DNA of 64,000 nucleotides from Laetmonice hystrix (lineage: Eukaryota), in contig OZ249436.1 in assembly GCA_965235115.1 (NCBI GenBank), forward strand, positions 3,226,001 through 3,290,000, in the 5' to 3' direction. A program made the translations under genes and the position numbers. Under the pieces are notes generated by a model, which was given only the letters and a program-made list of their open reading frames with translations, was not told the DNA's origin and made no database searches. Shown here in pieces: positions 1 through 46,100 of this stretch; positions within the stretch are counted from its first letter, which is position 1, and each line of letters begins with the position of its first letter.

Positions 1-26
1 CGGAGGAAGTTCTTACGTGTGAACAG
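1..26 (+). CDS. ZSWIM8: ZSWIM8 exon, 3' end only (EEVLTCEQ)
   Basis: CAG|gtaagg donor; phase 0 join to ILMWWF matches the ZSWIM8 segment as I recall it (LTxEQIxxWW). Confidence 0.8.
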
Positions 27-3000
27 GTAAGGGGTATCGTGTTTCTTACGGAATCGTGGAGATCGCTCACATTTCTCAAGTTCTTACGTGTGAACAGGTA
101 GGGGTATCGTGTTTCTTACGGAATCGTGGAGATCGCTCACATTTCTCAAGTTCTTACGTGTGAACAGGTAGGGGTATCGTGTTTCTTACGGAATCGTGGA
201 GATCGCTCACATTTCTCAAGTTCTTACGTGTGAACAGGTAGGGGTATCGTGTTTCTTACGGAATCGTGGAGATCGCTCACATTTCTCAAGTTCTTACGTG
301 TGAACAGGTAGGGGTATCGTGTTTCTTACGGAATCGTGGAGATCACTCAGGTTTCTCAAGTCATATTGTCATCATTCACATTGTCTTATGCCCAATTTCC
401 ACCGGATGCAAGCGAGCGATTTGCGACACCCACTCGCTCTCGCGTCCAGTGGAAATCGGGCATAAGTCGTGAATGATGACAACATTCCTATTTGGTCAAT
501 GGAAATGATGGAAGAAAAGTGAATGGATGCATGGAAATATATTCATAAAAAAAGAAAGATTGTTTTTGTAATAAGTCTTCCTTTCTACAGATTATGGTTG
601 ATATTTCTTTGGCAGATCCTCATGTGGTGGTTCAACACCAAGATCTCAGCATCCCACAACAGTGCCAACAACCACGGTAACCGAGGCAACCAGAACAGTA
701 GCTCCTCATCCCAACACGCTGCCTCCAGTATGTGTGATGAAATCGTCACATTATGGAGACTGGCCGCATTAAATCCAGGATTGTCCCCAATCCAGCGAGA
801 CGACTTGTGCACCCAGTTGAAAGACTGGCACATTAAAACAATAGACAAAGTACGGAAAGCCCGGGGTAATGTCTCGGCAGGAAATTCTGGTATAAAAAAG
901 ACAGACATTGAAATCTTTACCGGTTTCAAGGCAGCCATAGAGGGGACACAGTTAGACTGGAAGGATTATCCCATTCCAGGGTTAACGTACATGGAGCGGG
1001 ATCGACCCCGCTGGAAGTTTTCATTTGGCAAGTCCCAGGAGGTAGACTGCCGGAGAGGGGGGAGGGGGAAATGCCATGCTATGTCAACTGTATCTGGGAG
1101 TACGGCTATACATAATGGTGTACAAAAACTAGGTTTGGAGGCAGCCTTGGCACACGCTCAGGCTCACCTTCATGCTCACAATGCTGCGTATGCCCACAAA
1201 CATCATCCTCCCTTACAAACAGGGCCGTCACAGGAATCTAACACGTCTGATCTAGAGCCGGGATCAGCTCAGACAGACGGAGCCTGTAGTTCCAGCTCCG
1301 AGGGATTCTGTGAGAATGAGAAGGATGGCTCACACCAACATGACTCGGACTCAGATCTCGGCGAGGGCAGTATGCACTGCCACAAACTCGCGCTTCCGCC
1401 ACCAGGTGGCGCAGTTGGTGGTGTCAAAAGTAAGAAAGATCACAGCCGTGCCGGGCCTTTACCTCCCGGCCCAGTGTCGGTGGCGCCATCTACCTCTAAA
1501 TCAGAGGAATCATGTGCATCCATGTCATCAACAAAGGGTGCCGGGAAGGTACGAGATCCTCTGCTTGACGCTGCAACTCTGAAAACAGACGACCAGGATT
1601 CAGACAGCTCCCTGCCTGGTACGTACCAGGCCAGCTCCAGTAAAGGCTCACCCAATCAGGCTGGAGCAGCGGCTGCTGCTGCGGGCCTAGCAAAGGGTGA
1701 TCAGTCGGAGTCCCAACAGTCCAGTGATGAGTACCAAGTATACTTCTATGATACCAAGGCTAAGGTTTCCGACTCAGGTGCAGATAAGAAGAAAAAATCT
1801 GATGAGCCAAACTATTTTGCTGGTATCAAGAAATTGGAAAACAAGCAAGATGTAAGACTTTTAATATCTTTGTGTTCGTAGAAAATAAACCTTATTTGAT
1901 CATGTACAATACCTATTCAGAAGTTATTTTAAAAAGACACAGAAAGGGTTTAAAAATCTTATACATGTATATGCTAAGTTCTAAAATGATTTTCTTATTA
2001 GTAGATGAAATGTTCATTGAGATTCTCTGAGGCCTTCTTAACTTGTAAAACTGACGTGAATGTTTCCAGATTCTGTTTGCGCGTGCTGAAGGACTGCACG
2101 CCCATGGACACACTAAGGAAGCATGTCGCCTGGCCAAGCAGCTCGCGGAGGAGATGTTAAGTAACCCCCCTGAACTGACACAGGAGCAGCCCCAACAGGC
2201 TGCCAAGGGTAAGTACCCAGGGGTCAAAGGTGAAGGGTAGGATGCCCAACACGTTGTATTAGAAGGAAGGTTAAACACAATAATCTACACAAAGTATTGA
2301 AAAACACTTCTATCTCATATATGACCATCTTCTTGTTAGCTAGTATATCAGAGATTAGCCTATATTAGGTATAAATATCATCACTTTTCAGTCACTAATG
2401 ACCCCCCAAAAAATATTAAAGGCAATAATGTTTTAATTTAATGCACTTTTGCTCCCAAAATTTCACAAGGAAACTATTTACAGCATTCCATAGTTAATGT
2501 GTTTTGAAAATGTGTTTTGAAAATGTCAGTTTAAGAATTTTATGTCTTAACTTTAAGTTTATCATAAGTTATCAGTTTCATTATTTCTGACGTGTCTTCC
2601 CCACCCAACTGCCATATTACTAAACGCTAAGAGAGACATCTCTCTCACTGCAGGGAAGAAAAAGAAAGCCCAGAACAACATCTCGTCGTTTGCGAGTACA
2701 ACTCTGGCCAAGGCAGCCTTCCTGTGCTCGGTGCTACTGGAGGCTCCAGAGTGCCATCACCTGGCCTTTAAGGTGGGAATGTTTGGTCTAGAGATGCCCC
2801 GACCTCCTGCCTCGAGCAAGGCTCTAGAGGTGAGTCAAAGATTCGCCACAAATGCACCGGTAAGTCCCAAAATGTCTAATTCTCCAAAAATTCTTATCAT
2901 CATATTAGTTTCTAATGAGTACCTTAATTTTTAGTAATACTAAAAACGTTAGTGTAAGTTTTGTTTGTATAGTAATTTGAAGCAATTCTTTATAAATAAT

Positions 3001-6000
3001 TCTTATATAAGGAACTTTATGATGTTTCTATTCTGAACTAGTCTTGTGATAGTGCTAAGGCAAGAGTACAAAAATAGAAAGAAAATGATGAATAATTTCA
3101 AAACATGTGAAGCTCCTCACGTTGGAACATTATAGACAGACCTGTAGGATAATTCAGATATAAAAATATGTTAATGTGATATGTGAATGATTACAAAAAG
3201 CGACTCGTCATGTTGTTGCAGGTCAAACTTGCCCATCAAGAGTCCGAGCTGGCTGCACTCCTCAAGAGAATCCCTCTAGGTCTCGCCGAGCTCAACGTTA
3301 TACGGGACAGGGCGGAGCAGCTCCGCAGTGGCAAGTTAAAGTCTCGGGGTGAAGCACTACTGCCTCTGACATTGGCCAGTTTTATATTTGACTCTCTTTG
3401 TTTACCAAGTGAGTATACTTTTCTATGTAACAAGAAATAATTATGCTAAAAATATTACAACTTGGAGTGAAGCAGATCTCCTTACATTATGAAACATACA
3501 CATCTGTATAAGATCTTACATTATGAAACATACAAGTCTGTATAAGATCTTACATTATGAAACATACACATCTGTATAAGATCTTACATTATGAAACATA
3601 CAAGTCTGTATAAGATCTTACATTATGAAACATACAAGTCTGTATAAGATCTTACTTTATGAAACATACAAGTCTGTATAAGATCTTACATTATGAAACA
3701 TACAAGTCTGTATAAGATCTTACTTTATGAAACATGCAAGTCTGTATAAGATCTTACATTATGAAACATACAAGTCTGTATAAGATATCATCAAGAATAT
3801 AAGTGAGCAGTTTATTTGGGTATTTGCAGGACATGCAATATATTATAAAAAGTTATAAGTTAAATCAATTTGGTATTGTTTCAGTTATGCCCATCAATGG
3901 ACAGAATACACGATCCTCGAGTCGTTCCCCGCCGGTCGCTACCCGGGTAGCAGCTGATGAAAAACTTGGCTTTGAAGCTGCTGTAGCTGCTTTGGGTAAG
4001 AATAACTGATCCCTTAATGAAATATCGTGATAACATCTCATTATACGTCAACTCGTGCTAGTCACGTGTTAATGTTAACTTAGAAATTGTAAGTTAGTCT
4101 GACGAAGGTAGAGTTGACATCAACTCGTGCTAGTCACATGTTAATGTTAACTTAGAAACTGTAAGTTAGTCTGACGAAGGTAGAGTTGACATCAACTCGT
4201 GCTAGTCACGTGTCAATGTTAACTTAGAAATTGTAAGTTAGTCTGACGAAGGTAGAGTTGACATCAACTCGTGCTAGTCACGTGTCAATGTTAACTTAGA
4301 AATTGTAAGTTAGTCTGACGAAGGTAGAGTTGACATCAACTCGTGCTAGTCACATGTTAATGTTAACTTAGAAACTGTAAGTTAGTCTGACGAAGGTAGA
4401 GTTGACATCAACTCGTCCTAGTCGCGTGTTAATGTTAACTTAGAAACTGTAAGTTAGTCTGACGAAGGTAGAGTTAAACTGAAAGGTTGACTTTCATGTA
4501 GTTATGAAATGATTTGACCATCCAGGACTGAAGGCGAACGTGTCTGAGGCCGAACATCCACTGCTGTGTGAGGGGACTCGACGACAGCGAGGTGACCTGG
4601 CCATCACAATGTTAGTCTATTACAAGGACGACCAGGTCAAACTGAGCAAGGTACAACTGAACTCGTCTTCAAACACCAGTCATTCACTGCCACCAGTCAA
4701 TATCTAGACACATGTAGACCTTTTTTTATATGTTTTAAAACTAGTTTAGTCTTCAGTTTGTAAGGGACTGAATGTAACTACATCAGTTTAGACATTGATT
4801 CCCAGTAAAACACTCAGGTTTGAAATGTGTTTCTTTCTTAGATAATGGACAAGTTATTAGACAAAGCAATCCACCAGCTCTACAAGGCTCCATCCCTCAC
4901 CACCTACCTCTCAGCCAGTCAGACTGCCTCGGCTAAACTCGCAGCGAGTCGGCAACAGATGTCGCAACGACCACCTGTCAGTACAGCTGCAGCCGGCGGT
5001 GACGGTGGCGCACCCCAGCGGCAGGACCAGAACAAGGCCCCAAACTCTGGATTTGAAAGTGACGACAGCATGGGTACCAAGGATGACGGCAGCAGGGGTG
5101 CGTCATCAGTTGCTACGGTAACAACAAGTGCTGGTGACACTCATGTTTCCACGGCAGCAGTGGAATCTTCTCCGACATGGCAGGAACCTCTGGAGGAAGT
5201 GACGGAGAGCGGGACCCATAGTCTGGACTACCTAAACCTGGAGCAAAACTTCTCGTCGATGAGTCTCCAGGCCGGAGGAGGCGCTCGACCCAAGACAAGA
5301 TTATTAAATAGGTACAGCAGGTGGGTAGGGGGAGGGTCGAGCCGTGCTATATGTCACTTCACAGGCCAGCCGCGATAAGTAAATGGTAGAAAATAGTGTT
5401 TGGATTGTGAGGTATACGGATTAAAGAAGCACCGGTTAACGAGGTCTGACTGTACATATATGTAAATTGTAATTAGTTTAGCTGCCACGTTTAACAGCTC
5501 ACCCTGAATTATTTTTTCAGTGATTATCTTTGTGTGTTACAGTAAAGACACACACAGCTCACCCTGAATTATTTTTTCAGTGATTATCTTTGTGTGTTAC
5601 AGTAAAGACACACACAGCTCACCCTGAATTATTTTTTCAGTGATTATCTTTGTATGTTACAGTAAAGACACAGACAGCTCACCCTGAATTATTTTTTCAG
5701 TGATTATCTTTGTGTGTTACAGTAAAGACACAGACAGCTCACCCTGAATTATTTTTTCAGTGATTATCTTTGTGTGTTACAGTAAAGACACAGACAGCTC
5801 ACCCTGAATTATTTTTTCAGTGATTATCTTTGTGTGTTACAGTAAAGACACAGACAGCTCACCCTGAATTATTTTTTCAGTGATTATCTTTGTGTGTTAC
5901 AGTAAAGACACAGACAGCTCACCCTGAATTATTTTTTCAGTGATTATCTTTGTGTGTTACAGTAAAGACACAGACAGCTCACCCTGAATTATTTTTTCAG

Positions 6001-9000
6001 TGATTATCTTTGTGTGTTACAGTAAAGACACACACAGCTCACCCTGAATTATTTTTTCAATGATTATCTTTGTGTGTTACAGTAAAGACACAGACAGCTC
6101 ACCCTGAATTATTTTTTCAATGATTATCTTTGTGTGTTACAGTAAAGACACAGACAGTTCAGCCCTGGAGGAGGAGGGAGACCCAACCGACTACAAAGCC
6201 TGGGAGGCCAAATTCAGATGTGCTAATCTCAAGTCCAACAAAAAACACTCAGTTGGTGTGTATTGTGGTAATTATTTTTTGTTGTTGTTAATTAGAGTTT
6301 ATTTCATTATTTCACCGTAATATCATCTCTACGGAAAACAAAAAAAAAAACAATTGTGGTTTTGCAAAATTATGGGAAAGAGTCTGAAGCATAGAAGCTT
6401 ATATGACCATTACATTCTTAACATCCTCTAACAAACTGGCTTGATCATAGATATTTGATCAGCTTGCACATACCTGCCAACTCTTCCAATCGGAAAGTTT
6501 TGATTTCTGCTATAGAAAGAAAGGAAATCTTTTATGTGGTTTGTTACATGTGCTTTTCTTAATACCGTACTTTTATAACATATTATACCATAATATTATA
6601 TATTGTAAATATAACAATTTCAACTTCGAAGGCTGGCAATAGCCCTTCCAATATTAAACCCATAGAAATTTGTCACAAAAGTTCCTGACATGCCATTCAT
6701 CCACAGGCATGGCAGCTATCGACAGCAGTGCCCCAGAAACCACATCGAGTGACAACTCGCCCACATTAATCCGGCGTAACTGGGCCAAACACCAGGGACC
6801 TGGCAGTGACAGCGGCAGCTCGGGCAAGAGCTCCGACTCTCTCGGCTCATCAAGTTCCGGAGATAAAGGAGTGGCAGCCAAGTGCAGGGATAACGAAAGG
6901 TTAGTGCTTGTGTTGTTAACAGAATAAAATATCTCATACATTCTTCTCAGAGAAAATGGTGAAACCGTAAAGATTTACTTGTCAGCATTAGTTTCTGGTG
7001 ACGAAAGATAACCAAACAAGTGGAAACGTGACGGGAGATGTGATTCTCTAAATCTCTAGATGGCAGTAGCAGTGCGTGTCCTCCAAGGCTGTTCACCAGA
7101 GTTTTCTAAGTTATAGCTGTGGCCGTAACTGTTACGGTTAGACATTTATATGGGCAAGAATCTGACCAGAACATAGGTATTAGTTTAATATCCCATGCAG
7201 TAGAAACTTCAGTTGAAGTCATGAAACAAAACTCAACTTGATCTTTCAGTCCACCTTGTGTATACGGGGCTGCACGTTTTGCACCCCACCTGGTGGTCGA
7301 CTCAAGAAGCTCGACACCTAATATCAAAGGTCCAAGGTACGTTGTTAATGTGACTGTTTGGCGTATTGTAGGTAATAAATACAGCTGGGGGAAGGGGAAT
7401 ATAAACTTATCAGAGAAACTTAGAATCTGCAAATTACATTCAATGAATCTATTTCATTTTAGAGATTTCAGTTTCTAACACACTTCAGTTGTAAAACTAA
7501 AACACTAAATTTTTCTCATTTCTGTTTTTCTACAGATACAAGGGTAAAAATCGAATAATGCCAACTGTACCCAACATGCCAAGCGAGGCTTCAGCCCACT
7601 TCATGTTTGAGCTGGCCAAGACGTTGCTAAACAAAGCAGGAGGAAACAGTTCAACATCATTGTTCACCCAGCCTGCTGCCAACACCACACACAACGGTCC
7701 GCACCGTAACCTACACCTGTGCGCCTTCCAGGTCGGACTGTACGCTCTCGGACTCCACAACTGTGTCAGTCCCAACTGGCTGTCACGGACCTACAGCTCA
7801 CATGTATCGTGGATTACAGGTTTGTGGACAGTGACTGATAGTATGATCTTAAAACTTGTTCTCACCACAAATTACTTACAGCGTAGTGGCGAAAGACCAC
7901 CAGAAAAATAGGAGGGGGGTTGAGGGGCCACTAAGGCCACCGACCGGGTCCAGGCGCAGATCCCTGGTGAGCAAGGTTTGATAAATTAGAGAGTAAACCG
8001 TCGACATTTTACCAGTATGCCAGCGAGTTCTGTTGTATTTAAAAAGATATTACTGCTTTTACAAACTGGATAACTCAGTAGTTGTTGCCTGAAGTGTACT
8101 TGTTGACATAAAAAGAATGCTCAGGTTACAAGAGTTTTGTTTGGAAGAACTGTTCCACCCTGTGTTAAAAACACTGATTTTACCATTTCAGGCCAGGCGA
8201 TGGAGATTGGTAGTGCAGCCATCAATAATCTCATCGATACATGGGAGGGACACCTGACCCCGCCAGAGGTCGCCTCGTTAGCTGACCGCGCCTCACGAGG
8301 GCGTGATCCTAACATGGTGCGTGCAGCGGCTGAGTTAGCCTTATCATGTCTGCCACATGCTCACGCTCTCAACCCAAACGAAATCCAGCGAGCTTTGATC
8401 CAGTGTAAGGAGCAGAGCCGGGAGATGTTAGAGCGAGCCTGTCTGGCTGTGGAGAGTGCCGCCAAGGGTGGCGGAGTTTATCCTGAGGTGTTGTTTGACG
8501 TCGCCAAGAGGTGGTATGAGTTATACGAGGAGGCCATGCTCGGTCATGCAGCGCCGTCTAGTGCTGCGATGGCTGCGGTGGTGACCCAGGCGCAGGCAAT
8601 GCCTCCAGCGCTGGTCCCTGTCAATCTGGGCGCGGCTCAGCAACTGGTTGTAGAAAACAACAACAGTCCGCCTGTGATGCAGCTGGTACCGTGCCAGCAG
8701 ATCGGAGGCTCCTCCGCAGCAGCTGCTGTAGCAGTGACTGTCGGCCAGCAGGGGCAAGTCCAAGCACAGCAGGTAACAGCTGCTGCAGTTCCTGTTCCAC
8801 AGATGCAGTACAACTTGCCACCGCCCCCTGGTGCCCATCAGATCGCTCACCATCAGTACATCACGCCGTACTCGTACGTTCAGCAGGTCCCAGCCAACTT
8901 TGGGCATCACTACTCCCAGCCCCACATCCCCTTACAAACTCATTCCATACATCCCTCATACCTCGCCACTTACCCCTACCAAAATCAAACTGCATTCAGT

Positions 9001-11889
9001 AATGTCCAACATCTTCAGAACATGCATGCTAACGCAGCAACATTGTATCATGCCAATGTGTCACACCTGCGCCCACCACCCCCGACCGCCGTCCAAGTAG
9101 CTTACACCACCCAAGCATCGCCCCTCGCAGCCATACAAAACAGACCGCAGCATGCAGCGCATCTTCAAAACAAATTTAACCAAGTACAGATTGACGCTGT
9201 TACTGCACCGACAACACAGGTCATCGTAATGACAACACAAGCTAGCCTGAACGCTGGGGCCCCACAGCCACAGCAGTTGGAGAACCTGCCGGCTCAAAAC
9301 TCTGCCCAGATGAACTATCTGCTGTCTGCATACCGGGTTGGCATGCTTGCTATGGAAACGCTGGCTCGTCGTGTCCACGACGACAGACCACAGACAAAGT
9401 ACGCTCGCAATCCTCCTTATGGTGAAGATGTGAAGTGGCTTCTGAGTATTGCAATGAAACTTGGTAAGTTTTATAACCCTTCAAATAATAAACTTGGTAA
9501 GTTTTATAACCCTTCAAATAGTAAACGTGGTAAGTTTTATAACCCTTCAAAACTTGGTAAGTTTTATAACCCTTCAAATAATAAACTTGGTAAGTTTTAT
9601 AACCCTTCAAATAGTAAACTTGGTAAGTTTTATAACCCTTTAAATAGTAAACTTGGTAAGTTTTATAACCCTTCAAATAGTAAACTTGGTAAGTTTTATA
9701 ACCCTTCAAATAGTAAACTTGGTAAGTTTTATAACCCTTCAAATAGTAAACTTGGTAAGTTTTATAACCCTTCAAATAGTAAACTTGGCAAGTTTTATAA
9801 CCCTTCAAATAGTAAACTTGGTAAGTTTTATAACCCTTCAAATAGTAAACTTGGTAAGTTTTATAACCCTTCAAATAGTAAACTTGGTAAGTTTTATAAC
9901 CCTTCAAATAGTCAACTTGCACTGTGAATGGTCAGTATTGATTTGGGAGTCTTCTATGTGAGTGCATCTTGAAGGGATCCACATGCTCTTGTACAGTCCC
10001 AAATAGATATTACAGATTGTTGGAGCCATGACTTTCTTTTAAAACCAGGAACAAGCTACTTGCAGCAGTTCTGTGCGAGTGCAGTGAACGCGGTGGTGAG
10101 CCCGTTCGTACTACAGGACATCGCTCTCGAGTCGGCACACTATCTGGCTCGTAACAATCCAACACAGATGTCAAATCAGCTGCGCTCACCCACGCTCAAC
10201 TCTCTTGTACAGAAGTGCTTGCAGATGTAAGTTTACTAAGTTTCCAGTTTCGTGTAGATTGTGCCTTGAACTATTACCGGTAATTAGTGGTTCTGAATCT
10301 AATTGATTGTTGTAATTGTAAACTGCAGATGGTTATTTCATGGTTATCATTTAGTTGGTTTATTTATGGGGCATCAGCTAAATGACAACCTATCAATTAA
10401 ATCACTGCTTGTCAACTGTTTGATTAATTCCCTGTCAGATATTAATATATTTATTGCCCCTTAACAAACACTTTGACATGAAACACTCTTGTTGCCTACA
10501 TTTGAGGCATAATGACACGAAACACTGTTTTAACCTACATTTGAGGCTTATGACATGAAACATGACAAAAGCTGCCAAACAACTCTCCCTGGGGAAAATA
10601 GATAATATCTATGAAAATAAAAAATATCTATGAAAATGGATGTAGGTTTTAACCTACATTTGAGGTTTATGACCCGAAAACACTGTTTTAACCTACATTT
10701 GAGGTTTATGACATGAAAACACTGTTTTAACCTACATTTGAGGTTTATGACATGAAAACACTGTTTTAACCTACATTTGAGGTTTATGACATGAAAACAC
10801 TGTTTTAACCTACATTTGAGGTTTATGACATGAAAACACTGTTTCAACCTACATTTGAGGTTTATGACCTGAAAACACTGTTTTAACCTACATTTGAGGT
10901 TTATGACCTGAAAACACTGTTTCAACCTACATTTGAGGTTTATGACCTGAAAACACTGTTTTAACCTACATTTGAGGTTTATGACCTGAAAACACTTGTT
11001 TTAACCTACATTTGAGGTTTATGACATGAAAACACTTGTTTTAACCTACATTTGAGGTTTATGACATGAAAACACTGTTTTAACCTACATTTGAGGTTTA
11101 TGACCTGAAAACACTGTTTTAACCTACATTTGAGGTTTATGACCTGAAAACACTTGTTTTAACCTACATTTGAGGTTTATGACATGAAAACACTTGTTTT
11201 AACCTACATTTGAGGTTTATGACATGAAAACACTTGTTTTAACCTACATTTGAGGTTTATGACATGAAAACACTTGTTTTAACCTACATTTGAGGTTTAT
11301 GACATGAAAACACTGTTTTAACCTACATTTGAGGTTTATGACATGAAAACACTGTTTCAACCTACATTTAAGGTTTATGACATGAAAACACTGTTTTAAC
11401 CTACATTTGAGGTTTATGACATGAAAACACTGTTTCAACCTACATTTGAGGTTTATGACATGAAAACACTGTTTTAACCTACATTTGAGGTTTATGACCT
11501 GAAAACACTGTTTTAACCTACATTTGAGGCTTATGACATGAAAACACTGTTTTAACCTACATTTAAGGTTTATGACATGAAAACACTTGTTTTAACCTAC
11601 ATTTGAGGTTTATGACATGAAAACACTGTTTCAACCTACATTTGAGGTTTATGACCTATTTTCCACCACCAGGTTCATCCAGTGCACACATCAGAGGATC
11701 CACCACATCACCCAGGCGGAGTACGATGAGTTTGTAGGAATTGTATGCAGCGCTCGCAATGCGTTCTGCATGACGCCCGGAGGTATGGTGCAGTTCAACG
11801 AACTCCTCCAGAGCCTGCGGAGGTCTAAGTCGTGTAAGAAGGAGCTCTGGCAGCGAATCGTCAATGCCCTCGCCACGGGGAACATTTGA
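1..11889 (+). CDS. ZSWIM8: Zinc finger SWIM domain-containing protein 8 orthologue (EBAX-1/Dora), spliced, 5'-partial; 15 exons in window
   Basis: Exons 1-26, 616-1851, 2070-2208, 2654-2829, 3222-3408, 3885-3995, 4526-4650, 4842-5320, 6143-6255, 6707-6899, 7250-7336, 7536-7819, 8192-9463, 10049-10226, 11673-11889 join by GT-AG in one open frame. Recognised ZSWIM8 motifs: SMCDEIVTLWRLA, HPLLCEGTRRQRGDLA, MAAIDSSAPETTSSDNSPT, PSEASAHFMFELAK, NWLSRTYSSHVSWITGQ, YRVGMLAMETLARR. Confidence 0.95.
7..361. repeat. 70-bp tandem array, 5 copies, spanning a ZSWIM8 donor
   Basis: unit aagttcttacgtgtgaacag|gtaggggtatcg...tttctc. Confidence 0.95.
616..1851 (+). CDS. ZSWIM8: ZSWIM8 exon (ILMWWFNTK...LENKQD)
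   Basis: ttggcag|ATC acceptor, GAT|gtaaga donor; inside ORF 523..1881. Confidence 0.92.
2070..2208 (+). CDS. ZSWIM8: ZSWIM8 exon (ILFARAEGLHAHGH...)
   Basis: tttccag|ATT, AGG|gtaagt. Confidence 0.92.
2654..2829 (+). CDS. ZSWIM8: ZSWIM8 exon (...GLEMPRPPASSKALE)
   Basis: ctgcag|GG, GAG|gtgagt. Confidence 0.92.
3222..3408 (+). CDS. ZSWIM8: ZSWIM8 exon (VKLAHQESE...LCLP)
   Basis: ttgcag|GTC, CAA|gtgagt. Confidence 0.92.
3475..3786. repeat. 34-bp tandem array, about 9 copies, mid-intron
   Basis: unit agatcttacattatgaaacatacaagtctgtata. Confidence 0.95.
3885..3995 (+). CDS. ZSWIM8: ZSWIM8 exon (...DEKLGFEAAVAALG)
   Basis: tttcag|TT, TGG|gtaaga. Confidence 0.9.
4048..4475. repeat. 72-bp tandem array, about 6 copies, mid-intron
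   Basis: unit tcaactcgtgctagtcac...gtagagttgaca. Confidence 0.95.
4526..4650 (+). CDS. ZSWIM8: ZSWIM8 exon (LKANVSEAEHPLLCEGTRRQRGDLA...)
   Basis: atccag|GA, AAG|gtacaa. Confidence 0.92.
4842..5320 (+). CDS. ZSWIM8: ZSWIM8 exon (IMDKLLDK..., low complexity)
   Basis: tcttag|ATA; donor CAG|gtgggt (a same-phase alternative donor after 5311 is possible). Confidence 0.85.
5494..6161. repeat. 60-bp tandem array, 11 copies, spanning a ZSWIM8 acceptor
   Basis: unit acagctcaccctgaatt...gtgttacag|taaagacacag. Confidence 0.97.
6143..6255 (+). CDS. ZSWIM8: ZSWIM8 exon (KDTDSSALEEE...WEAKFRC...HSV)
   Basis: acceptor is the last copy of the 60-bp array; TTG|gtgtgt; phases fit neighbours. Confidence 0.85.
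6707..6899 (+). CDS. ZSWIM8: ZSWIM8 exon (MAAIDSSAPETTSSDNSPT...)
   Basis: ccacag|GC, AAG|gttagt. Confidence 0.9.
7250..7336 (+). CDS. ZSWIM8: ZSWIM8 small symmetric exon (PPCVYGAARF...KGP)
   Basis: ctttcag|T, AAG|gtacgt; 87 bp, phase 2-2, open. Confidence 0.7.
7536..7819 (+). CDS. ZSWIM8: ZSWIM8 exon (...PSEASAHFMFELAK...SHVSWIT)
   Basis: ctacag|A, CAG|gtttgt. Confidence 0.93.
8192..9463 (+). CDS. ZSWIM8: ZSWIM8 exon (QAMEIG...Q/P/A-rich region...WLLSIAMKL)
   Basis: tttcag|GC; donor TTG|gtaagt is the first copy of the 33-bp array. Confidence 0.92.
9457..9919. repeat. 33-bp tandem array, 14 copies, spanning a ZSWIM8 donor
   Basis: unit aaacttg|gtaagttttataacccttcaaatagt. Confidence 0.97.
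10049..10226 (+). CDS. ZSWIM8: ZSWIM8 exon (TSYLQQFC...LVQKCLQ)
   Basis: aaccag|GA, GAT|gtaagt. Confidence 0.9.
10475..11657. repeat. 39/40-bp tandem array, about 27 copies, ending 15 nt before the last ZSWIM8 acceptor
   Basis: unit ttttaacctacatttgaggtttatgacatgaaaacactg; interrupted near 10565-10645. Confidence 0.95.
11673..11889 (+). CDS. ZSWIM8: ZSWIM8 last coding exon (FIQCTHQRIHHI...GNI*)
   Basis: caccag|G; ends at TGA; matches the ZSWIM8 C-terminus. Confidence 0.92.
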
Positions 11890-14800
11890 TGGCGGCACAC
11901 CCCTAGAGAATTTCTATGTAATCACACTGTTATCCACCATACCAGGGATGTAGAGTGACGTGAACAGGAAGCCACGGACAGCGAGATACGATTACCTTTT
12001 TTCCAGCGGGTGATCAGTTTTGGAATGATAGTAGTGGCTATTTGTAAAGGTGTTGTGACTGGTTATATTCTATACTGTTGTCATATTGTCCTGTGGTGCA
12101 CACTTGCCACAAGGAGATGAACTCAGAGGATTTTTAAGAACTTTTGATGTATTGTTGCCAGTTGCAGCATTCATTGGACTGAGAGTACATGTGAAATGAT
12201 ACCAACCAACGCTTCTGATAGCTGCTGGTCAAACCCCATCGTTACTTGCTCAGCATCACAGAGACTGCTCACATCCGGACAGGCTAGCGAATTGTTCTTG
12301 TGGGACGTCAACATGTATGGAAGGTTCAGCATTGTCAGAAAGCTGCCAAACAACTCTCCCCAGGGAAAATAGATAATATCTATGAAAATAGATAATATCT
12401 ATGAAAATAGATAATATCTATGTGTACTCTAGCATCAGCAGCAGCAGTCGATACCATCGTCAGCAACAGTCTACATTCACCCCACAAGTCGGCTACAGAC
12501 ACGTCCACGAAGCAAGCAAGCCACCTTCAGTATCTCAACATATTTTTGTATGCATGGCATGTATTCTTACTGAAGAAGGGGGAGAAAAGAAACTGAGAAA
12601 ATAATCAAAAATTAGCCACAAGATTGGCTCTTATTCACCAATGTATCTGAAGACTAAAGTTGTGGCGTTCGGGCGAAGTGAAGAAGTGAGGTCGGACAGG
12701 TTTTAAAGAACGTGAGAAGAGTTCGAGTGTGAACTGTTGACAAACCAGGATTGCATTGGTTGTCCCCTTGTATGTGCGTAATCGTTATTAAATGTAGAAG
12801 CCCGTATAAATATGCCGTTTTGATGAAGATAGTTAGATTATGTAAATAATACATCATATGTAACTTGCATGTTGTGTGAAGCCGACGTAGGAAAATTTAA
12901 ATTAAGTGAATCAAGGTCATGTGACTAGGCTGTTGTTATGGTAACACGTCATGCTTTATGTCACTTTCTTTGGTTAAAAGTTAGTGTTTTCTTGGGGGAA
13001 AAATGAATTGAAATGTATTAGGAATTATTATTTATTTTACGTTTCTTTTTGAATTTAGGAAAAAAAATTGAAGCTGCTGCTCTTGTAATATAACTATTGC
13101 GTAGTACTGAAGTAATTTAGTGAATTTGAAGGTATTACCAATTAATTGACTATTTGATTGGTTAGTTGTATTAATTGGTGTTTGTATGTCACTCAGAGAG
13201 TGCCTATTGTTTTTGCTGGCACCAATTTCTAACTGGTGGTTCAGCGCGTCGTCCAAGCAGTGTTCAGTGTAGGAATTGACGGTAGTTTCACTGAACCAGG
13301 CATCGGTCCGAAGACTAGGACCTGCCAACTGCCCAAGCGCTCCAGTTTATCTAGTTTTATTGATGAAAAGGTTAACAAATACATACATATATTCATGTAT
13401 TTGTGTATATACACACTAATATTGGATGTATTATGTATGTAGAAGGGCCAAGGGCTGTAGGATATAACGCCCTTCATATATGCCTACTATAGGAGGAATA
13501 GTTGGCATAGCTTGTTGCACCAATAGTATGCAATGGATGTTTTAATCATATGAATACTAGTACATTTATTTAGTATTAAAAGTGATCATGGGTGGGAGAG
13601 AGTAACATAATTGAACACGTTGGTTGGGGAGCAGACATGGAGGCCCTGGGATTATATTTGTGGAATGCCCTGATAAATTTGTGTTCAAACATAAAAAACC
13701 TATCCTGTACTTGCGATTGCAACGACCAAAATTGTTGTTTGGTGGGGAGTTTTCATGCTTTTTGAAAGTGTTATATTTATATGAGGAAGAGAATATAATC
13801 AGACATTGTAAAGTTTAAGAGAAATCCCACAGGAAGCGCCCTCTGGCTATTAGGTAATGAACTAATATGTAAAAAGAAACCTTATATGACCTAGTGTTAC
13901 GTTATTTAAAAAACATTGGGATACACAAAAAATTGAACCCCTTATTATCATAATTGTTGAACCAATGTTTGACTGCAGGGATTTTGGAGTGTTTCCAAAC
14001 TAATTGGTAGCAAATTATGATATATGTATACGCTCTGGTTGGTCACCTATTTATAAGCACAAACTTGTACACAGAAAAAAATTTATATTGTATGTTGTGT
14101 CAAGTTTCACACACAGATTTATTAAGGAAACAAGAACCAGACTGGTGTGTCAGAGTTAAAGCTTGAAACTACGGTAAATACTAGAGTGACAAATGTGGAG
14201 CATATGTATTTTGCCATGCCTTCAACAAGCATGTGATTGTTTCACAGAGCACCGTTGATCGTTGTTGTTGAACTACCAACGTATAGAATATGCTCAAGGG
14301 ACTTTACAAGTTGGAGATATGCACTGCGTAGAATATTTTTCTACTGTTGACCTGTGGTGGATCTCGTTACCATATAGTGTTGTTTGAAAATTATCAATAT
14401 ATAGTATCCATGTATATGAATGCTTTGCTCAAGCAAGGCCAGAGTGGGCACACGTTTGTTTCTCCTATTTCTATTTTCCCCTTTATTATTTGAATGGATC
14501 ATATAGCTCTCGAAGCATCGACCTGTTGTTTGGTGTTATGTTATTATATACCCAGTTTTTGTTATTTAGATTTGACTGAACCTTTGTGGGGTTTCATGCT
14601 CTTATTGTGCTAAGAAAATGCGTCCAGCCTTGAATCAAAACTTTGCCTGAGTGTACATCTGCAACAACGAAATTAAAGTAATACAAGTAACTAACTATCA
14701 ACTAAAAAAAAAAATAAAAATAGGAATGACAAAAACACAATACATCTGTATATGGTCCTATGGTCCTAAGAAAACCTAGAAGACAAAACATATTAAAATC

Positions 14801-37100: not shown

Positions 37101-40100
37101 GGTTTTAAGTAGATTAAAACACATCTAGCTCATCGGGGTGAAGAATTGCTTTGCATCGTTGTTTATTTCATGCCCATATCTATTTCAAAACTGCTTCTAG
37201 TGCGAGAACAAGCTGGAGGGCTTGCACTAGGCGCGGTATAAAAGGATCAATAAAAAAACAAAAAAAACAACAAAGCCAGTCAATTTTACGAATTTTGTAA
37301 ATTTTAATTCTAAGTTAAAACGGTTGAGATCAATGCAGCTTGTTTCCTGTCCTATCTAGTCAGACATTGTCAAACCACACGTTTTAATTTCAGAAAACTC
37401 ATAACTTTCTGATGACCTCTTCTATACAGTTCTCTATTCAAATATTCAGATATACAAAGTCTCGCTCTATATAATGGTAAATCATTGTTTTCGCTTTGAA
37501 ATCCACTTTCAGGAGACAATCGACGTGAACAAGCCACCCCGAGGGACACAACTAAAGGAGAGGGGTCAGCCAGATGGACAGAAATCATGTGACCGGCAGG
37601 GCAAGAAATACCACAACGTGTTTACGTACGACATCAATGGCAGACGAGTCCTGGTTAGGGTGAGTGGGAGACGTGTTCTAAGTGTGGTGGTGTGAGTTTT
37701 ACATGATCTTGGAGGTGTTCTAAGTGTGGCGGTGTGAGTTTTACATGATCTTGGAGGTGTTCTAAGTGTGGTGGTGTGAGTTTTACATGATCTTGGAGGT
37801 GTACTAAGTGTGGTGGTGTGAGTTTTACATGATCTTGGAGGTGATCTAAGTGTGGTGGTGTGAGTTTTACATGATCTTGGAGGTGTTCTAAGTGTGGTGG
37901 TGTGAGTTTTACATGATCTTGGAGGTGTTCTAAGTGTGGTGTTGTGAGTTTTACATGATCTTGGAGATGTTCTAAGTGTGGTGTTGTGAGTTTTACATGA
38001 TCTTGGAGGTGTTCTAAGTGTGGCAGTGTGAGTTTTACATGATCTTGGAGGTGTTCTAAGTGTGGTGGTGTGAGTTTTACATGATCTTGGAGGTGTTCTA
38101 AGTGTGGTGATGTGAGTTTTACATGATCTTGGAGGTGTTCTAAGTGTGGTGGTGTGAGTTTTACATGATCTTGGAGGTATTCTAAGTGTGGGTGTGTGAG
38201 TTTTACATGATCTTGGAGGTGTTCTAAGTGTGGTGGTGTGAGTTTTACATGATCTTGGAGGTGTTCTAAGTGTGGGGGTGTGAGTTTTACATGATCTTGG
38301 AGGTGTTCTAAGTGTGGTGGTGTGAGTTTTACATGATCTTGGAGGTGTTCTAAGTGTGGTGTTGTGAGTTTTACATGATCTTGGAGGTGTTCTAAGTGTG
38401 GTGGTGTGAGTTTTACATGATCTTGGAGGTGTTCTAAGTGTGGTGGTGTGAGTTTTACATGATCTTGGAGATGTTCTAAGTGTGGTGGTGTGAGTTTTAC
38501 ATGATCTTGGAGGTGTTCTAAGTGTGGTGGTGTGAGTTTTACATGATCTTGGAGATGTTCTAAGTGTGGTGGTGTGAGTTTTACATGATCTTGGAGGTGT
38601 TCTAAGTGTGGTGGTGTGAGTTTTACATGATCTTGGAGGTGTTCTAAGTGTGGTGGTGTGAGTTTTACATGATCTTGGAGTTGTTCTAAGTGTGGTGGTG
38701 TGAGTTTTACATGATCTTGGAGGTGTTCTAAGTGTGGTGGTGTGAGTTTTACATGATCTTGGAGGTGTTCTAAGTGTGGTGGTGTGAGTTTTACATGATC
38801 TTGGAGGTGTTCTAAGTGTGGTGGTGTGGGTTTTACATGATCTTGGAGGTGTTCTAAGTGTGGGGGTGTGAGTTTTACATGATCTTGGAGGTGTTCTAAG
38901 TGTGGTGGTGTGAGTTTTACATGATCTTGGAGGTGTTCTAAGTGTGGTGGTGGGAGTTTTACATGATCTTGGAGGTGTTCTAAGTGTGGTGGTGTGAGTT
39001 TTACATGATCTTGGAGGTGTTTTAAGTGTGGTGGTGTGAGTTTTTCATGATCTTGGAGGTGTTCTAAGTGTGGTGGTGTGAGTTTTTCATGATCTTGGAG
39101 GTGTTCTAAGTGTGGTGGTGTGAGTTTTTCATGATCTTGGAGGTGATCTAAGTGTGGTGGTGTGAGTTTTACATGATCTTGGAGGTGTTCTAATAGTGGC
39201 AGTATGATTTTGACACAATCTTAGAGGTGTTCTAATAGTGGCAGTATGATTTTGACACAATCCTTGAGGTGTTCTAATAGTGGCAGTATGATTTTGACAC
39301 AACCCTTGAGGTGTTCTAATAGTGGCAGTATGATGTTGGCACAATATTGGAGGTGTTCTAATAGTGGCAGTATGATGTTGACACAATCATGGAGGTGTTA
39401 TAATAGTTGCAGTATGATTTTGACACAATTTTAGAGGTGTTGTAATAGTGGCAGTATGATTTTTACACAATATTGGAGGTGTTCTAATAGTGGCAGAATG
39501 ATTTTAACACAATATTGGAGTTGTTCTAATAGCTGCAGTATGATTTTGATACAATATTGCTATTGTTGTAATAGATGCAGTATGATTTTTTATAGAAATC
39601 CGGTGAGTCAGAGGACGATAGTGCATACAACTCGCCACCACAGAGTACAAGCCCAAACTATGTGACCATCACCGGGGACCAAGTGGATGACCAGGTTATG
39701 CCCGGCTGGCTCAGGTAAGATAACCGTGGCAGACCTTTTATATTGGCAAACTTGCCACAAGGCACGTGGGCTGTCAACAATCCACTTGCTCCGTAAAGAT
39801 CCAGGGGTGGGTTGCACTAACGGTCCTACGGGTTAGGACTAAATTTAGGACCAGTCCTACATTCAACAGAGACCAATATCCATAATTTAAATGTAATTCG
39901 TTAACTTTTATATCTCAAGGACTATTGAAACTCAGATAGATATGAAGTGCTTGGGGGGCATGACACTCAGTAGGACTGGTCCTAAATTCAGTCCTAACCC
40001 GTAGGACCGTTAGTGCAACCCGCCCCAGTGTCCTAAAATCCACTTGAACCCGGTCGGATAAGTCTGCACTTTCGTATTGGTTTATAAAAGTCAATGCAAA

Positions 40101-43100
40101 CCACTGGGGTGTGACAATCCCCTCACCTGACGGAATAGTCAATTCGCCCTGCGCGTTAGGTTGTAAGATTCTCCCCTGATCGCGTTGGGTTGTAAGATTC
40201 TCCCCACCCCTGATCGCGTTGGGTTGTAAGATTCTCCCCTGATCGCGTTGGGTTGTAAGATTCTCCCCTGATCGCGTTGGGTTGTAAGATTCTCCCCTGA
40301 TCGCGTTGGGTTGTAAGATTTTCCCCTGATCGCGTTGGGCTGTAAGATTCTCCCCACCCCTGATCGTGTTGCGTTGTAAGACTCTCCCCACCCCTGATCG
40401 CGTTGGGTTGTATGATTCTCCCCACCCCTGATCGCGTTGGGTTGTAAGATTCTCCCCACCCCTGATCGCGTTGGGTTGTAAGATTCTCCCCACCCCTGAT
40501 CGCGTTGGGTTGTATGATTCTCCCCACCCCTGATCGCGTTGGGTTGTAAGATTCTCCCTACCCCTGATCGCGTTGGGTTGTAAGATTCTCCCCACCCCTG
40601 ATCGCGTTGGGTTGTAAGATTCTCCCCACCCCTGATCGCGTTGGGTTGTAAGATTCTCCCCACCCCTGATCGCGTTGGGTTGTAAGATTCTCCCCACCCC
40701 TGATCGCGTTGGGTGGTAAGATTCTCCCCGCCCCTGATCGCGTTGAGTTTGAGGTTCTCCCCACCCCTGATCGCGTTGGGTTGTAAGATTCTCCCCTGAT
40801 CGCGTTGGGTTGTAAGATTCTCCCCGCCCCTGATCGCGTTGGGTTGTAAGATTCTCCCCGCCCCTGATCGTGTTGGGTTGTAAGATTCTCCCCACCCCTG
40901 ATCGCGTTGGGTTGTAAGATTCTCCCCTGATCGCGTTGGGTTGTAAGATTCTCCCCACCCCTGATCGCGTTGAGTTTGAGGTTCTCCCCACCCCTGATCG
41001 CGTTGGGTTGTATGATTCTCCCCACCCCTGATCGCGTTGGGTTGTAAGATTCTCCCCACCCCTGATCGCGTTGGGTTGTATGATTCTCCCCACCCCTGAT
41101 AGATTTCACCCCAGAAAGATTGTCAGTGTGTCAAATAAATCTACTTGAGCCCTAGAGTTTGTATTAAGCCCTGTTATGGTGGGTATAATAGCAATGATTG
41201 ATTGTTACAGGAAAGAGTTACAGCGTAGTGGTGGCGGGGTTGGGAGGAGGCAGTCTGCTGACGACTCCCCGACCCCACGACCCCCTGATGACGACACCGA
41301 CCGTCCTAAGTCTGCCAGGTTACGTCCTTTATCAGGTCGTAGACATCTGCGTGTCTCGTCACAGTCCCCAGACCCGCCAACTGTAAGTGTTTGTGTGTCT
41401 CGTCACAGTCCCCAGACCCGCCAACTGTAAGTTTGTATGTCTCGTCACAGTCCCCAGACCCGCCAACTGTAAGTTTGTGTGTCTCGTCACAGTCCCCAGA
41501 CCCGCCAACTGTATTGTGTGTCTCGTCACAGTCCCCAGACCCGCCAACTGTATTGTGTGTCTCGTCACAGTCCCCAGACCCGCCAACTGTATTGTGTGTC
41601 TCGTCACAGTCCCCAGACCCGCCAACTGTAAGTGTTTGTATGTCTCGTCACAGTCCCCAGACCCGCCAACTGTAAGTGTTTGTATGTCTCGTCACAGTCC
41701 CCAGACCCGCCAACTGTAAGTTTGTGTGTCTCGTCACAGTCCCCAGACCCGCCAACTGTAAGTTTGTGTGTCTCGTCACAGTCCCCAGACCCGCCAACTG
41801 TAAGTTTGTGTGTCTCGTCACAGTCCCCAGACCCGCCAACTGTAAGTGTTTGTATGTCTCGTCACAGTCCCCAGACCCGCCAACTGTAAGTGTTTGTATG
41901 TCTCGTCACAGTCCCCAGACCCGCCAACTGTAAGTTTGTGTGTCTCGTCACAGTCCCCAGACCCGCCAACTGTAAGTTTGTGTGTCTCGTCACAGTCCCC
42001 AGACCCGCCAACTGTAAGTTTGTATGTCTCGTCACAGTCCCCAGACCCGCCAACTGTAAGTTTGTGTGTCTCGTCACAGTCCCCAGACCCGCCAACTGTA
42101 AGTTTGTGTGTCTCGTCACAGTCCCCAGACCCGCCAACTGTAAGTTTGTATGTCTCGTCACAGTCCCCAGACCCGCCAACTGTAAGTGTTTGTATGTCTC
42201 GTCACAGTCCCCAGACCCGCCAACTGTAAGTGTTTGTATGTCTCGTCACAGTCCCCAGACCCGCCAACTGTAAGTTTGTGTGTCTCGTCACAGTCCCCAG
42301 ACCCGCCAACTGTAAGTGTTTGTATGTCTCGTCACAGTCCCCAGACCCGCCAACTGTAAGTGTTTGTATGTCTCGTCACAGTCCCCAGACCCGCCAACTG
42401 TAAGTTTGTGTGTCTCGTCACAGTCCCCAGACCCGCCAACTGTAAGTGTTTGTATGTCTCGTCACAGTCCCCAGACCCGCCAACTGTAAGTTTGTGTGTC
42501 TCGTCACAGTCCCCAGACCCGCCAACTGTAAGTGTTTGTATGTCTCGTCACAGTCCCCAGACCCGCCAACTGTAAGTTTGTGTGTCTCGTCACAGTCCCC
42601 AGACCCGCCAACTGTAAGTTTGTGTGTCTCGTCACAGTCCCCAGACCCGCCAACTGTAAGTGTTTGTATGTCTCGTCACAGTCCCCAGACCCGCCAACTG
42701 TAAGTTTGTGTGTCTCGTCACAGTCCCCAGACCCGCCAACTGTAAGTTTGTATGTCTCGTCACAGTCCCCAGACCCGCCAACTGTAAGTTTGTGTGTCTC
42801 GTCACAGTCCCCAGACCCGCCAACTGTAAGTTTGTGTGTCTCGTCACAGTCCCCAGACCCGCCAACTGTAAGTTTGTATGTCTCGTCACAGTCCCCAGAC
42901 CCGCCAACTGTAAGTGTTTGTGTGTCTCGTCACAGTCCTCAGACCCGCCAACTGTAAGTGTTTGTGTGTCTCGTCACAGTCCCCAGACCGGCCAACTGTA
43001 AGTGTTTGTGTGTCTCGTCACAGTCCCCAGACCCGCCAACTGTAAGTGTTTGTGTGTCTCGTCACAGTCCCCAGACCGGCCAACTGTAAGTGTTTGTGTG

Positions 43101-46100
43101 TCTCGTCACAGTCCCCAGACCGGCCAACTGTAAGTGTTTGTTTGTCTCGTCACAGTCCCCAGACCGGCCAACTGTAAGTGTTTGTGTGTCTCGTCACAGT
43201 CCCCAGACCCGCCAACTGTAAGTGTTTGTGTGTCTCGTCACAGTCCCCAGACCGGCCAACTGTAAGTGTTTGTGTGTCTCGTCACAGTCCTCAGACCCGC
43301 CAACTGTAAGTGTTTGTGTGTCTCGTCACAGTCCCCAGACCCGCCAACTGTAAGTTTGTGTGTCTCGTCACAGTCCTCAGACCCGCCAACTGTAAGTGTT
43401 TGTGTGTCTCGTCACAGTCCCCAGACCGGCCAACTGTAAGTGTTTGTATGTCTCGTCACAGTCCCCAGACCCGCCAACTGTAAGTTTGTGTGTCTCGTCA
43501 CAGTCCCCAGACCCGCCAACTGTAAGTTTGTGTGTCTCGTCACAGTCCCCAGACCCGCCAACTGTAAGTTTGTATGTCTCGTCACAGTCCCCAGACCCGC
43601 CAACTGTAAGTTTGTGTGTCTCGTCACAGTCCCCAGACCCGCCAACTGTAAGTTTGTGCGTCTCGTCACAGTCCCCTGGGCCCCGTCTTACTAAGCCGGC
43701 GACGTCGCCAAATGGGACGTCGCCGGCCCATATAAGGTAATATGTCGCCTGTTCTGGCGACGTACCCCATTGCTTTAACGTTGGCGACATTTGACGGGCG
43801 ATGTCGCCGGCTTAGTAAGACGGGCCCCAGACCCGCCAACTGTAAGTTTGTGTGTCTCATCACAGTCCCCAGACCCGCCAACTGTAAGTTTGTGCGTCTC
43901 GTCACAGTCCCCAGACCCGCCAACTGTAAGTTTGTGCGTCTCGTCACAGTCCCCAGACCCGCCAACTGTAAGTTTGTGTGTCTCATCACAGTCCCCAGAC
44001 CCGCCAACTGTAAGTTTGTATGTCTCGTCACAGTCCCCAGACCCGCCAACTGTAAGTGTTTGTATGTCTCGTCACAGTCCCCAGACCCGCCAACTCTAAG
44101 TGTTTGTATGTCTCGTCACAGTCCCCAGACCCGCCAACTGTAAGTGTTTATATGTCTCGTCACAGTCCCCAGACCCGCCAACTGTAAGTTTTTGTGGACA
44201 GAGATTCAAAACTTCAGTTATTGAGACTAAATGAGATATACATTTTACACTAAATATTCACCGGCTATGAACTCTACTTTGATCCGTAGAAACATTACTC
44301 TCACTCCAAATATGACGTTTTCCAACCTATTTTCTTTTCCAGTTATGAGTACATTTTAAAAACCTAAAAGCTATGCGTACTTTGTAGCGTTTTATATTCG
44401 GAAGTGGTAACCAATTGAGAGGAAAGTTAAAGAAGCCTGAAACGATGATAAACTTGCAGGTAAAGACAGGTTGGGGAGCTGAGACGGCCAGTACTAGTGG
44501 TGACAACGGTCAGGATGACGTCAGATCATCAGGTACTGTGGAGACAGCTGTACAGACAGGAGGGGAACTACTCCGGAACTACGAACCCGTGAGTATTCAG
44601 CCGTCAGAGGCTCCTTAACACTGTAACACCCCCCCCCAAGCGCGTTCTCATTGAAAAGCACTCACCATGATCAATCTAAGTGTATCCAGTTCGACCCACA
44701 TATAAGCGCTGTTTCGTTACTTTGCAGTCTGAGTGTATCCAATTTGACCCACCTATAAGCGCCAGTTTCGTTACCTTGCAGTCTGTTTGAACCACCTATA
44801 CGCACCAGTTTCGTAACCATGCAGTCTGAATGTGTCCAATTTGACCCACCTATAAGCACCAGTTTCGTTACCTTGCAGTCTAAGTGTATCCAATTTGACC
44901 CACCTATAAGCACCAGTTTCGTTACCTTGCAGTCTGAGTGTATCCTGTTTGACCCAGCTATAAGCACCAGTTTCGTTACCTTGCAGTCTGAGTGTATCCT
45001 GTTTGACCCAGCTATAAGCGCCAGTTTCGTTACCTTGCAGTCTGAGTGTATCCTGTTTGATGGTGAGAAAGCCCAGTACGAAGTCCAGGTGTTTACGGGA
45101 GACCGACTCGGAGCAGGCACCAAGGCCGACATCAAAGTGGTGTTGAGAGGCGACAAGGGGAGAACGAATGAGATCCACCTGAAGGATTCCAAAACTCACA
45201 AGATCACCTTCCAGAGAGGACAGGTGGGGTGGTCTCTCATGCAGAATCTCGTAAAACAAATTTTCCTATCACTGCAAATATATACAGCTGTATCTACAAG
45301 GAAATTATATACCAGTTATAAAGAACGTATTCAGAAACTGTGAGCTTCAACCCTTCAAGCATTGATAAAGTTTCTGTTATTAGAGCCGGAGCCTAGATTT
45401 TCATCATCCACATTGTGTCCGTAGAAATGTTATAAACAGAGCCTAGATTTTCATCATCCACATTGTGTCCGTAGAAATGTTATAAACAGAGCCTAGATTT
45501 TCATCATCCACATTGTGTCCGTAGAAATGTTATAAACAGAGCCTAGATTTTCATCATCCACATTGTGTCCGTAGAAATGTTATAAACGGAGCCTAGATTT
45601 TCATTATCCACATTGTGTCCGTAGAAATGTTATAAACAGAGCCTAGATTTTCATCATCCACATTGTGTCCGTAGAAATGTTATAAACAGAGCCTAGATTT
45701 TCATCATCCACATTGTGTCCGTAGAAATGTTATAAACGGAGCCTAGATTTTCATCATCCACATTGTGTCCGTAGAAATGTTATAAACAGAGCCTAGATTT
45801 TCATCATCCACATTGTGTCCGTAGAAATGTTATAAACAGAGCCTAGATTTTCATCATCCACACTGTGTCCGTAGAAATGTTATAAACAGAGCCTAGATTT
45901 TCATCATCCACATTGTGTCCGTAGAAATGTTATAAACAGAGCCTAGATTTTCATCATCCACATTATGTCCGTAGAAATGTTATAAACAGAGCCTAGATTT
46001 TCATCCCAGTATTCCCATATATGTTCCAGGAGGACATTTTTGACCTTGATACGTATTTTGTGGGACCCATACGGAAGATCACAATAGGTCATGACAGAAA

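Follow-up and report, generated by a model that had tools for sequence, protein, structure and literature searches.

Tandem repeats that reiterate a splice site are known from human genes and from lancelets. In intron 7 of human F7, the first unit of a 37-bp variable number tandem repeat spans the exon–intron boundary, and by the account given in PMC1557585 only the most upstream of the identical donors is used, though two of the pseudo-sites would keep the reading frame open. The same account lists donor-spanning minisatellites of 10–25 copies in CBS (intron 13), IFI6 (6-16), LMNB2 and PDGF, and reports use of the first donor alone for the last two. Lancelet 'mirages' (Adh3 and the globins BflGb6 and BflGb9) are minisatellite-like duplications of exon–intron boundaries at donors and acceptors, which, as described in PMC3087553, recur within the genome, leave normal splicing undisturbed and are unstable in length between alleles. 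Here we describe a 33-nt array that reiterates a donor of ZSWIM8 in Laetmonice hystrix (assembly GCA_965235115.1, contig OZ249436.1, forward-strand positions 3,226,001 to 3,290,000; this stretch of 64,000 nt is called the window, and positions are counted from its first base). We consider it most probable (roughly 70%) that instability of repeats produced this donor-spanning minisatellite as a neutral by-product and that its first donor dominates.

ZSWIM8 is the substrate receptor of a cullin-RING ligase that acts in target-directed miRNA degradation (TDMD). The array occupies the junction between its third-last and second-last coding exons (Table 1) and was delimited by Tandem Repeats Finder (TRF; period 33, 14.2 copies, 95% matches) at a GC content of 27%. 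Its fourteen donors stand 33 nt apart, with the sole exception of a 27-nt step from 9530 to 9557; the hexamer is GTAAGT in 13 of them, and the preceding bases are TTG in all except the copy at 9530, which has GTG. Any of the 13 downstream donors, if used, would yield a stop-free insert of 11 to 141 residues, and splicing from the last of them would leave an intron of 162 nt. The initial annotation had listed fourteen in-frame donors, a 33-nt unit with one 27-nt variant, a single GCAAGT at 9788 and in-frame addition of the repeat from every downstream donor; all of this was recovered, at 9464–9887. As a repeat, the array lies far beyond chance, whereas its in-frame, stop-free state lies within chance.

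The anatomy of the locus has thus been published before, in human genes and in lancelets, and the ZSWIM8 array is a further case. Its resemblance to F7 lies in the similarly spaced identical donors downstream of the authentic one; it differs in its 33-nt unit, in having all copies in frame and open, in reading GTAAGT rather than GTGGGT, and in its invertebrate host (PMC1557585). With the CBS, IFI6, LMNB2 and PDGF arrays it has the same anatomy, while unit lengths and genes differ (PMC1557585). Boundary-spanning duplications at donors and acceptors, recurring in one genome, are common to this species and the lancelet mirages, but the host here is a lophotrochozoan and the between-allele instability of length is reported for mirages (PMC3087553). 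We found no report of such an array in ZSWIM8 in the literature, in which no search combined ZSWIM8 with minisatellite terms.

Homology identifies the host gene as ZSWIM8, and its placement in the C-terminal region, as first annotated, held up against tblastn, a match to PDB 9RWZ and the ZSWIM4-8 C-terminal domain PF21055, which is spread over the last three exons. Fifteen exons of the window chain through GT-AG introns into a single frame open for 1606 residues, whose best full-length matches are annotated ZSWIM8 proteins of an annelid, a nemertean and a chiton (55–56%); identity to the homologue P0002, computed before the last exon was corrected, was 58% over 1576 columns. The window does not reach the N-terminal domains (BC/cullin box, SWIM and D), which lie upstream of it; the adjoining 20 kb on that side held one further exon only. 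Joining donor 1 to 10049 restores the ancestral KLG/TSYLQQFC. Of 120 homologues, 110 carried the anchor motif; the spacing is exact in 92 of these, four have inserts of 1–16 residues, and the other 14 diverge or end at the junction, by appearance mostly through intron read-through. Annotated inserts of 6, 15 and 16 residues, unrelated in sequence, stand at or just before the junction in the chiton P0003 and the beetles P0080 and P0090, and may be real isoforms or annotation errors. The repeat peptide occurred in none of 243 fetched proteins, none of them derived from transcripts of this species; the protein searches returned no transcript-derived protein of the species and covered lengths of 742–1010 by a short query only. 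By the PDB 9RWZ match, the junction maps to about G1711/V1712 of the human protein, in the part of the clamp modelled as C-terminal HEAT repeats. In the cryo-EM structure these HEAT repeats were modelled without side chains, and the AGO2 contacts that its description names lie away from the junction, in the sensor and HEAT repeats 3–6 (residues up to 1375; PMC13083262). An AlphaFold model of a homologue places a turn of a single residue at the junction, between two helices (pLDDT ∼95).

Other donor arrays bear indirectly on which donor is used. The pattern of three GGTAAGT units gave 5717 matches genome-wide against 4777 for the reversed pattern, counts of overlapping windows rather than of arrays. 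Among the matches listed, we took 11 further GGTAAGT arrays from the same contig: two lie at homology-confirmed exons, two are exon-like and seven were unverifiable (L085–L088 and L093–L095) and left out of the tally, although L085 and L086, if real, would have no open downstream donor. In the GABA transaminase exon, all seven downstream donors of a 51-nt array are out of frame, and six of them keep TG/GTAAGT; the consensus unit is stop-free in the exon frame, but a first unit of 50 nt shifts the later donors. A 52-nt array at an ankyrin exon likewise offers no open frame downstream, nor do the donor-spanning 42- and 64-nt arrays of the window, while the two exon-like arrays (27 and 45 nt, with no homology support) are in frame but reach a stop. 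In the second gene of the window, the array at 41351–44196 holds 59 identical ACT/GTAAGT sites, and none of the 58 downstream ones is open. Conserved genes thus hold intact downstream donors whose use would yield nonsense; if these genes are functional, the first donor must dominate. Much use of the downstream donors in the other arrays, among them the 70-nt array of ZSWIM8 and that of GABA transaminase, would wreck the proteins. We infer that the 33-nt array is tolerated in the same way as those of F7, LMNB2, PDGF and the lancelet mirages: the spliceosome would pick donor 1 in the great majority of transcripts, and normal ZSWIM8 would result.

The open frame of the ZSWIM8 array looks like chance. 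One donor-spanning array in eight has its downstream donors in frame and open, or one in four if the homology-confirmed arrays alone are counted. Of the duplications simulated at the other donors of the window, 17% were in frame and open, so that 1.4 of 8 would be expected, and a duplication of 33 nt would stay open at 22 of the 33 other donors. When donor and acceptor arrays of the window were taken together, three of eight were open (P 0.18). A second reading frame of the array is also almost open, with a single stop in 152 codons. Frame-keeping at this locus is therefore at the chance rate, on small numbers; on equally small numbers, the sequences give no sign of selection for a repeat peptide.

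The array itself appears to have arisen in place. Its ends carry six identical bases, AACTTG, and its unit is restricted to it: at up to three mismatches, all 14 matches in the 627-Mb genome searched fall within the array. By this evidence the minisatellite is locally born and locus-specific, not a member of a dispersed repeat family. The two closest relatives in the protein set, P0121 (95%) and P0122 (84% over the exon), have no array, and their intron sequence past the donor is unrelated. At 24 of 47 metagenome ZSWIM8 loci a GT intron begins at the same phase-1 position, and the array was present at the junction in none of 45 parsed loci, which are mostly distant and partly redundant (two of the 47 were mis-parsed, and four rows flagged 'intron?' were actually continuous). 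On these comparisons the intron is old and the array young. In the single-copy state, two copies of AACTTG would have stood 33 nt apart, a distance that would set the period; slippage or unequal exchange between them would give a 33-nt duplication, which would then have grown to 14 copies. A period divisible by three and a unit free of stops would both be accidents. Single-copy segments between short direct repeats are described as duplicating and then expanding in just this manner (PMC13167724). The AACTTG copies that flank our array are the point of likeness to such microhomology-mediated tandem duplication; the difference is that the single-copy ancestor is here a reconstruction (PMC13167724). 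Terminal repeats of 3–8 nt were found in five of eight arrays of the window, and a crude test found none in the other three. Two loci considered as paralogues (L002 and L003) were rejected because they hold an unrelated 35-nt array with a short common core and L002 has no ZSWIM8 match in tblastn.

Several points weigh against a neutral array with a dominant first donor. The 9-mer of the donor is unchanged in 11 of the 13 downstream copies, whereas the two frameshifting arrays of 70 and 64 nt have downstream donors that mostly depart from the first (GTAGGG in place of GTAAGG, and GTAATG in place of GTAAAT), a contrast that could reflect selection damping harmful copies only. CBS and IFI6 each use two extra donors (PMC1557585). 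In HeLa assays with two strong 5′ sites, the intron-proximal one was preferred, increasingly so beyond ∼30 nt and, in the data given in PMC3413131, by nearly 100% at a spacing of at least 45 nt. A sample of eight arrays has little power, and four of the eight (42, 64, 27 and 45 nt) were recognized by frame and consensus rather than by homology. Donor choice is deduced from DNA, and expression of the control genes is assumed.

Some of these points would suit a leaky ladder without function, in which most splicing uses donor 1 but at least 10% goes to neighbouring or intron-proximal copies, and extra 11-residue loops between two C-terminal helices are tolerated because they keep the frame, which would be why the donors have not decayed. 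We hold this to be possible though unlikely. It fits the precedents of CBS and IFI6 and the onset of proximal preference near 30 nt among strong sites, as well as a donor that is perfect at +1 to +6 and matches the consensus 9-mer at seven of nine positions; the chiton and beetle inserts hint that insertions at the junction may be tolerated. Yet the GABA transaminase copies are equally intact and all out of frame, the second gene of the window keeps its 58 downstream copies although none is open, and the junction, in the homologue modelled, is a turn of one residue between confidently predicted helices. As intact copies exist out of frame, intactness needs no argument from tolerance: youth and homogenization would be enough. 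We regard as improbable the wider proposal that a large part of the splicing falls to the 13 extra donors, generating a ladder of isoforms with 11 to 141 added residues and making repeat number a heritable dial on TDMD. A meaningful ladder is weighed against, indirectly, by the seven of eight arrays that give frameshifts or stops, by the chance-rate frame, by the absence of the array in relatives and by the 243 proteins without the peptide. A selected and regulated form of it, with repeat number or tissue-specific donor choice tuning the C-terminal solenoid of ZSWIM8 and thereby TDMD, is very improbable. It could appeal to the 13 extra donors, all in frame and open even across the 27-nt unit, and to the position of the junction in the clamp; but the array is not conserved in relatives, five of the six substitutions among full-length units alter a residue, and the named AGO2 contacts lie elsewhere.

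Intron retention was also considered, with a truncated ZSWIM8 ending in 14 repeats or a lower output through nonsense-mediated decay (NMD) as its outcome. The stop at 9927 foreseen by the initial annotation was confirmed as a TGA, to which the retained frame stays open for 154 codons. Under the exon-junction model of NMD, a stop well upstream of the last junction makes a transcript a target. With this stop 299 nt upstream of the last junction, a transcript that retained the intron would be subject to NMD, provided that the following intron is removed; the claim that the isoforms would escape NMD thus stands for the in-frame inserts, which create no premature stop, but not for retention. Closely spaced strong donors may sterically hinder one another (PMC3413131), a mechanism by which the array might promote retention. 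We nevertheless find the proposal scarcely credible: ∼130 conserved residues would be removed, other arrays in the genome are tolerated, and the predicted folding of the array RNA is ordinary (z −1.83).

That the array was made by the assembly is next to negligible as an explanation. The reads examined came from three runs on one sample of one study, possibly the source sample of the assembly, and among the read-derived contigs, which collapse the repeat, no single one crosses the whole array. These two facts are what an artefact has in its favour. Read-derived contigs nevertheless run into the repeat from either flank, and the depth of the collapsed repeat contig exceeds that of the flank ∼14-fold (X1) and ∼12-fold (X2), though such depth is no copy number; together these observations indicate that the array is real. 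Its units can moreover be told apart by their substitutions and the 27-nt variant. Two allelic differences, at 10038 and 10041 (runs X2 and X3), fall in the rest of the intron. No splice joint across the intron was present in contigs of the three runs (stretch 9847–10640, covering the last two donors only); the sole joint listed there falls within a dispersed repeat at 10554–10568. With contigs unbroken through the intron, the runs behave as DNA. A segment of ∼50 nt of the last ZSWIM8 intron (10568–10620) recurs almost identically at 12339–12422, in the presumed 3′ UTR past the stop.

Table 1. Features of the ZSWIM8 locus and of the arrays compared with it (window positions unless another locus is given; a slash marks the exon–intron boundary).
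Feature	Position	Strand	Basis or remark
Donor-spanning minisatellite	9457..9919	+	33-nt unit of 7 exon and 26 intron bases; TRF
Donors, n = 14, single frame	9464, 9497, 9530, 9557, 9590, 9623, 9656, 9689, 9722, 9755, 9788, 9821, 9854, 9887	+	
Donor 1, TTG/GTAAGT, authentic donor	9464..9469	+	Homologue spacing, tblastn
13 reiterated candidate donors, in frame and stop-free	9497..9892	+	12 GTAAGT; GCAAGT at 9788
TGA met on intron retention	9925..9927	+	299 nt upstream of last exon junction
Unique rest of intron	9920..10048	+	Acceptor AG at 10047–10048
Left microhomology AACTTG, exon end	9458..9463	+	
Right microhomology AACTTG, array end	9914..9919	+	
ZSWIM8 coding exon ending ...LLSIAMKL-G, phase 1	8192..9463	+	tblastn; PF21055 positions 6–56; final 7 nt belong to the repeat unit
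Next ZSWIM8 exon	10049..10226	+	PF21055 positions 56–114; human ZSWIM8 residues 1713–1766 in PDB 9RWZ
Last ZSWIM8 coding exon, with stop	11673..11889	+	PF21055 positions 116–173; open exon chain
70-nt donor-spanning array in ZSWIM8, 5 donors	7..361	+	0/4 downstream donors open
60-nt acceptor-spanning array in ZSWIM8, 11 acceptors	5494..6167	+	10/10 upstream acceptors in frame but reach a stop
GABA transaminase exon with 51-nt donor array	L089 590–1101 (G000:C1:3590000–3591100)		E 3e-8

The window as a whole is rich in minisatellites. Its two annotated genes, ZSWIM8 and a PLAT/ankyrin gene, have 37 introns and hence 74 splice sites, eight of which (four donors and four acceptors) are spanned by arrays. 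Among 23 intronic arrays with at least four copies, 16 span or adjoin (≤ 25 nt) a site, where a rough uniform null predicts 4.4; over 1–60949, minisatellites are concentrated at exon edges. The second gene (22106–60949) comprises 24 exons with 1064 residues open and encodes a PLAT/LH2 domain and ankyrin repeats; its exon limits were drawn by eye, guided by GT-AG ends and reading frame, and Pfam supported four of five exons tested. Before one of its ankyrin exons lies a 60-nt acceptor-spanning array of ∼46 copies (50349–53095), an acceptor-side mirror of the ZSWIM8 donor array, with 16 pattern-matched upstream acceptors in frame and open and an open reading frame of 980 codons. The array at 41351–44196 (42/44 nt, ∼67 copies) has AG and GTAAGT 18 nt apart in each unit and is broken at ∼43677–43827 by an unrelated insert resembling an inverted repeat. 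Two others, at 37673–39529 and 53900–54272, begin 13 and 8 nt past a donor and do not span a real junction; their units contain cryptic donor-like motifs (GGT/GTGAGT and CAG/GTAATT). An intron also holds, at 48700–48970, a long inverted repeat, MITE-like by eye, around ∼48790–48820, and shortly past the downstream end of the window a tandem array of ∼854-nt period extends for at least 18 kb (L036–L037, G000:C1:3291800–3310000). Thirty kinase loci were scanned for arrays outside the tally.

On the most likely reading, the finding is of small importance, one more donor-spanning minisatellite. Its use may lie in the study of splice-site choice. In the usual arrays, downstream donors give frameshifts or stops when used, and NMD can hide such use; because all products of the ZSWIM8 array would be in frame, with no NMD filter, it would be a clean assay of donor choice. 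Near-identical strong donors 33 nt apart bear on first-site scanning, as discussed for F7 (PMC1557585), versus preference for the proximal site, as found in the two-site assays (PMC3413131). Should the ladder prove abundant, it would amount to a repeat-encoded variable loop in the receptor of the TDMD ligase. On a wider view, a genome with roughly a tenth of its splice sites reiterated (8/74, in the window) would offer a natural setting in which to study how the spliceosome picks one of several identical donors.

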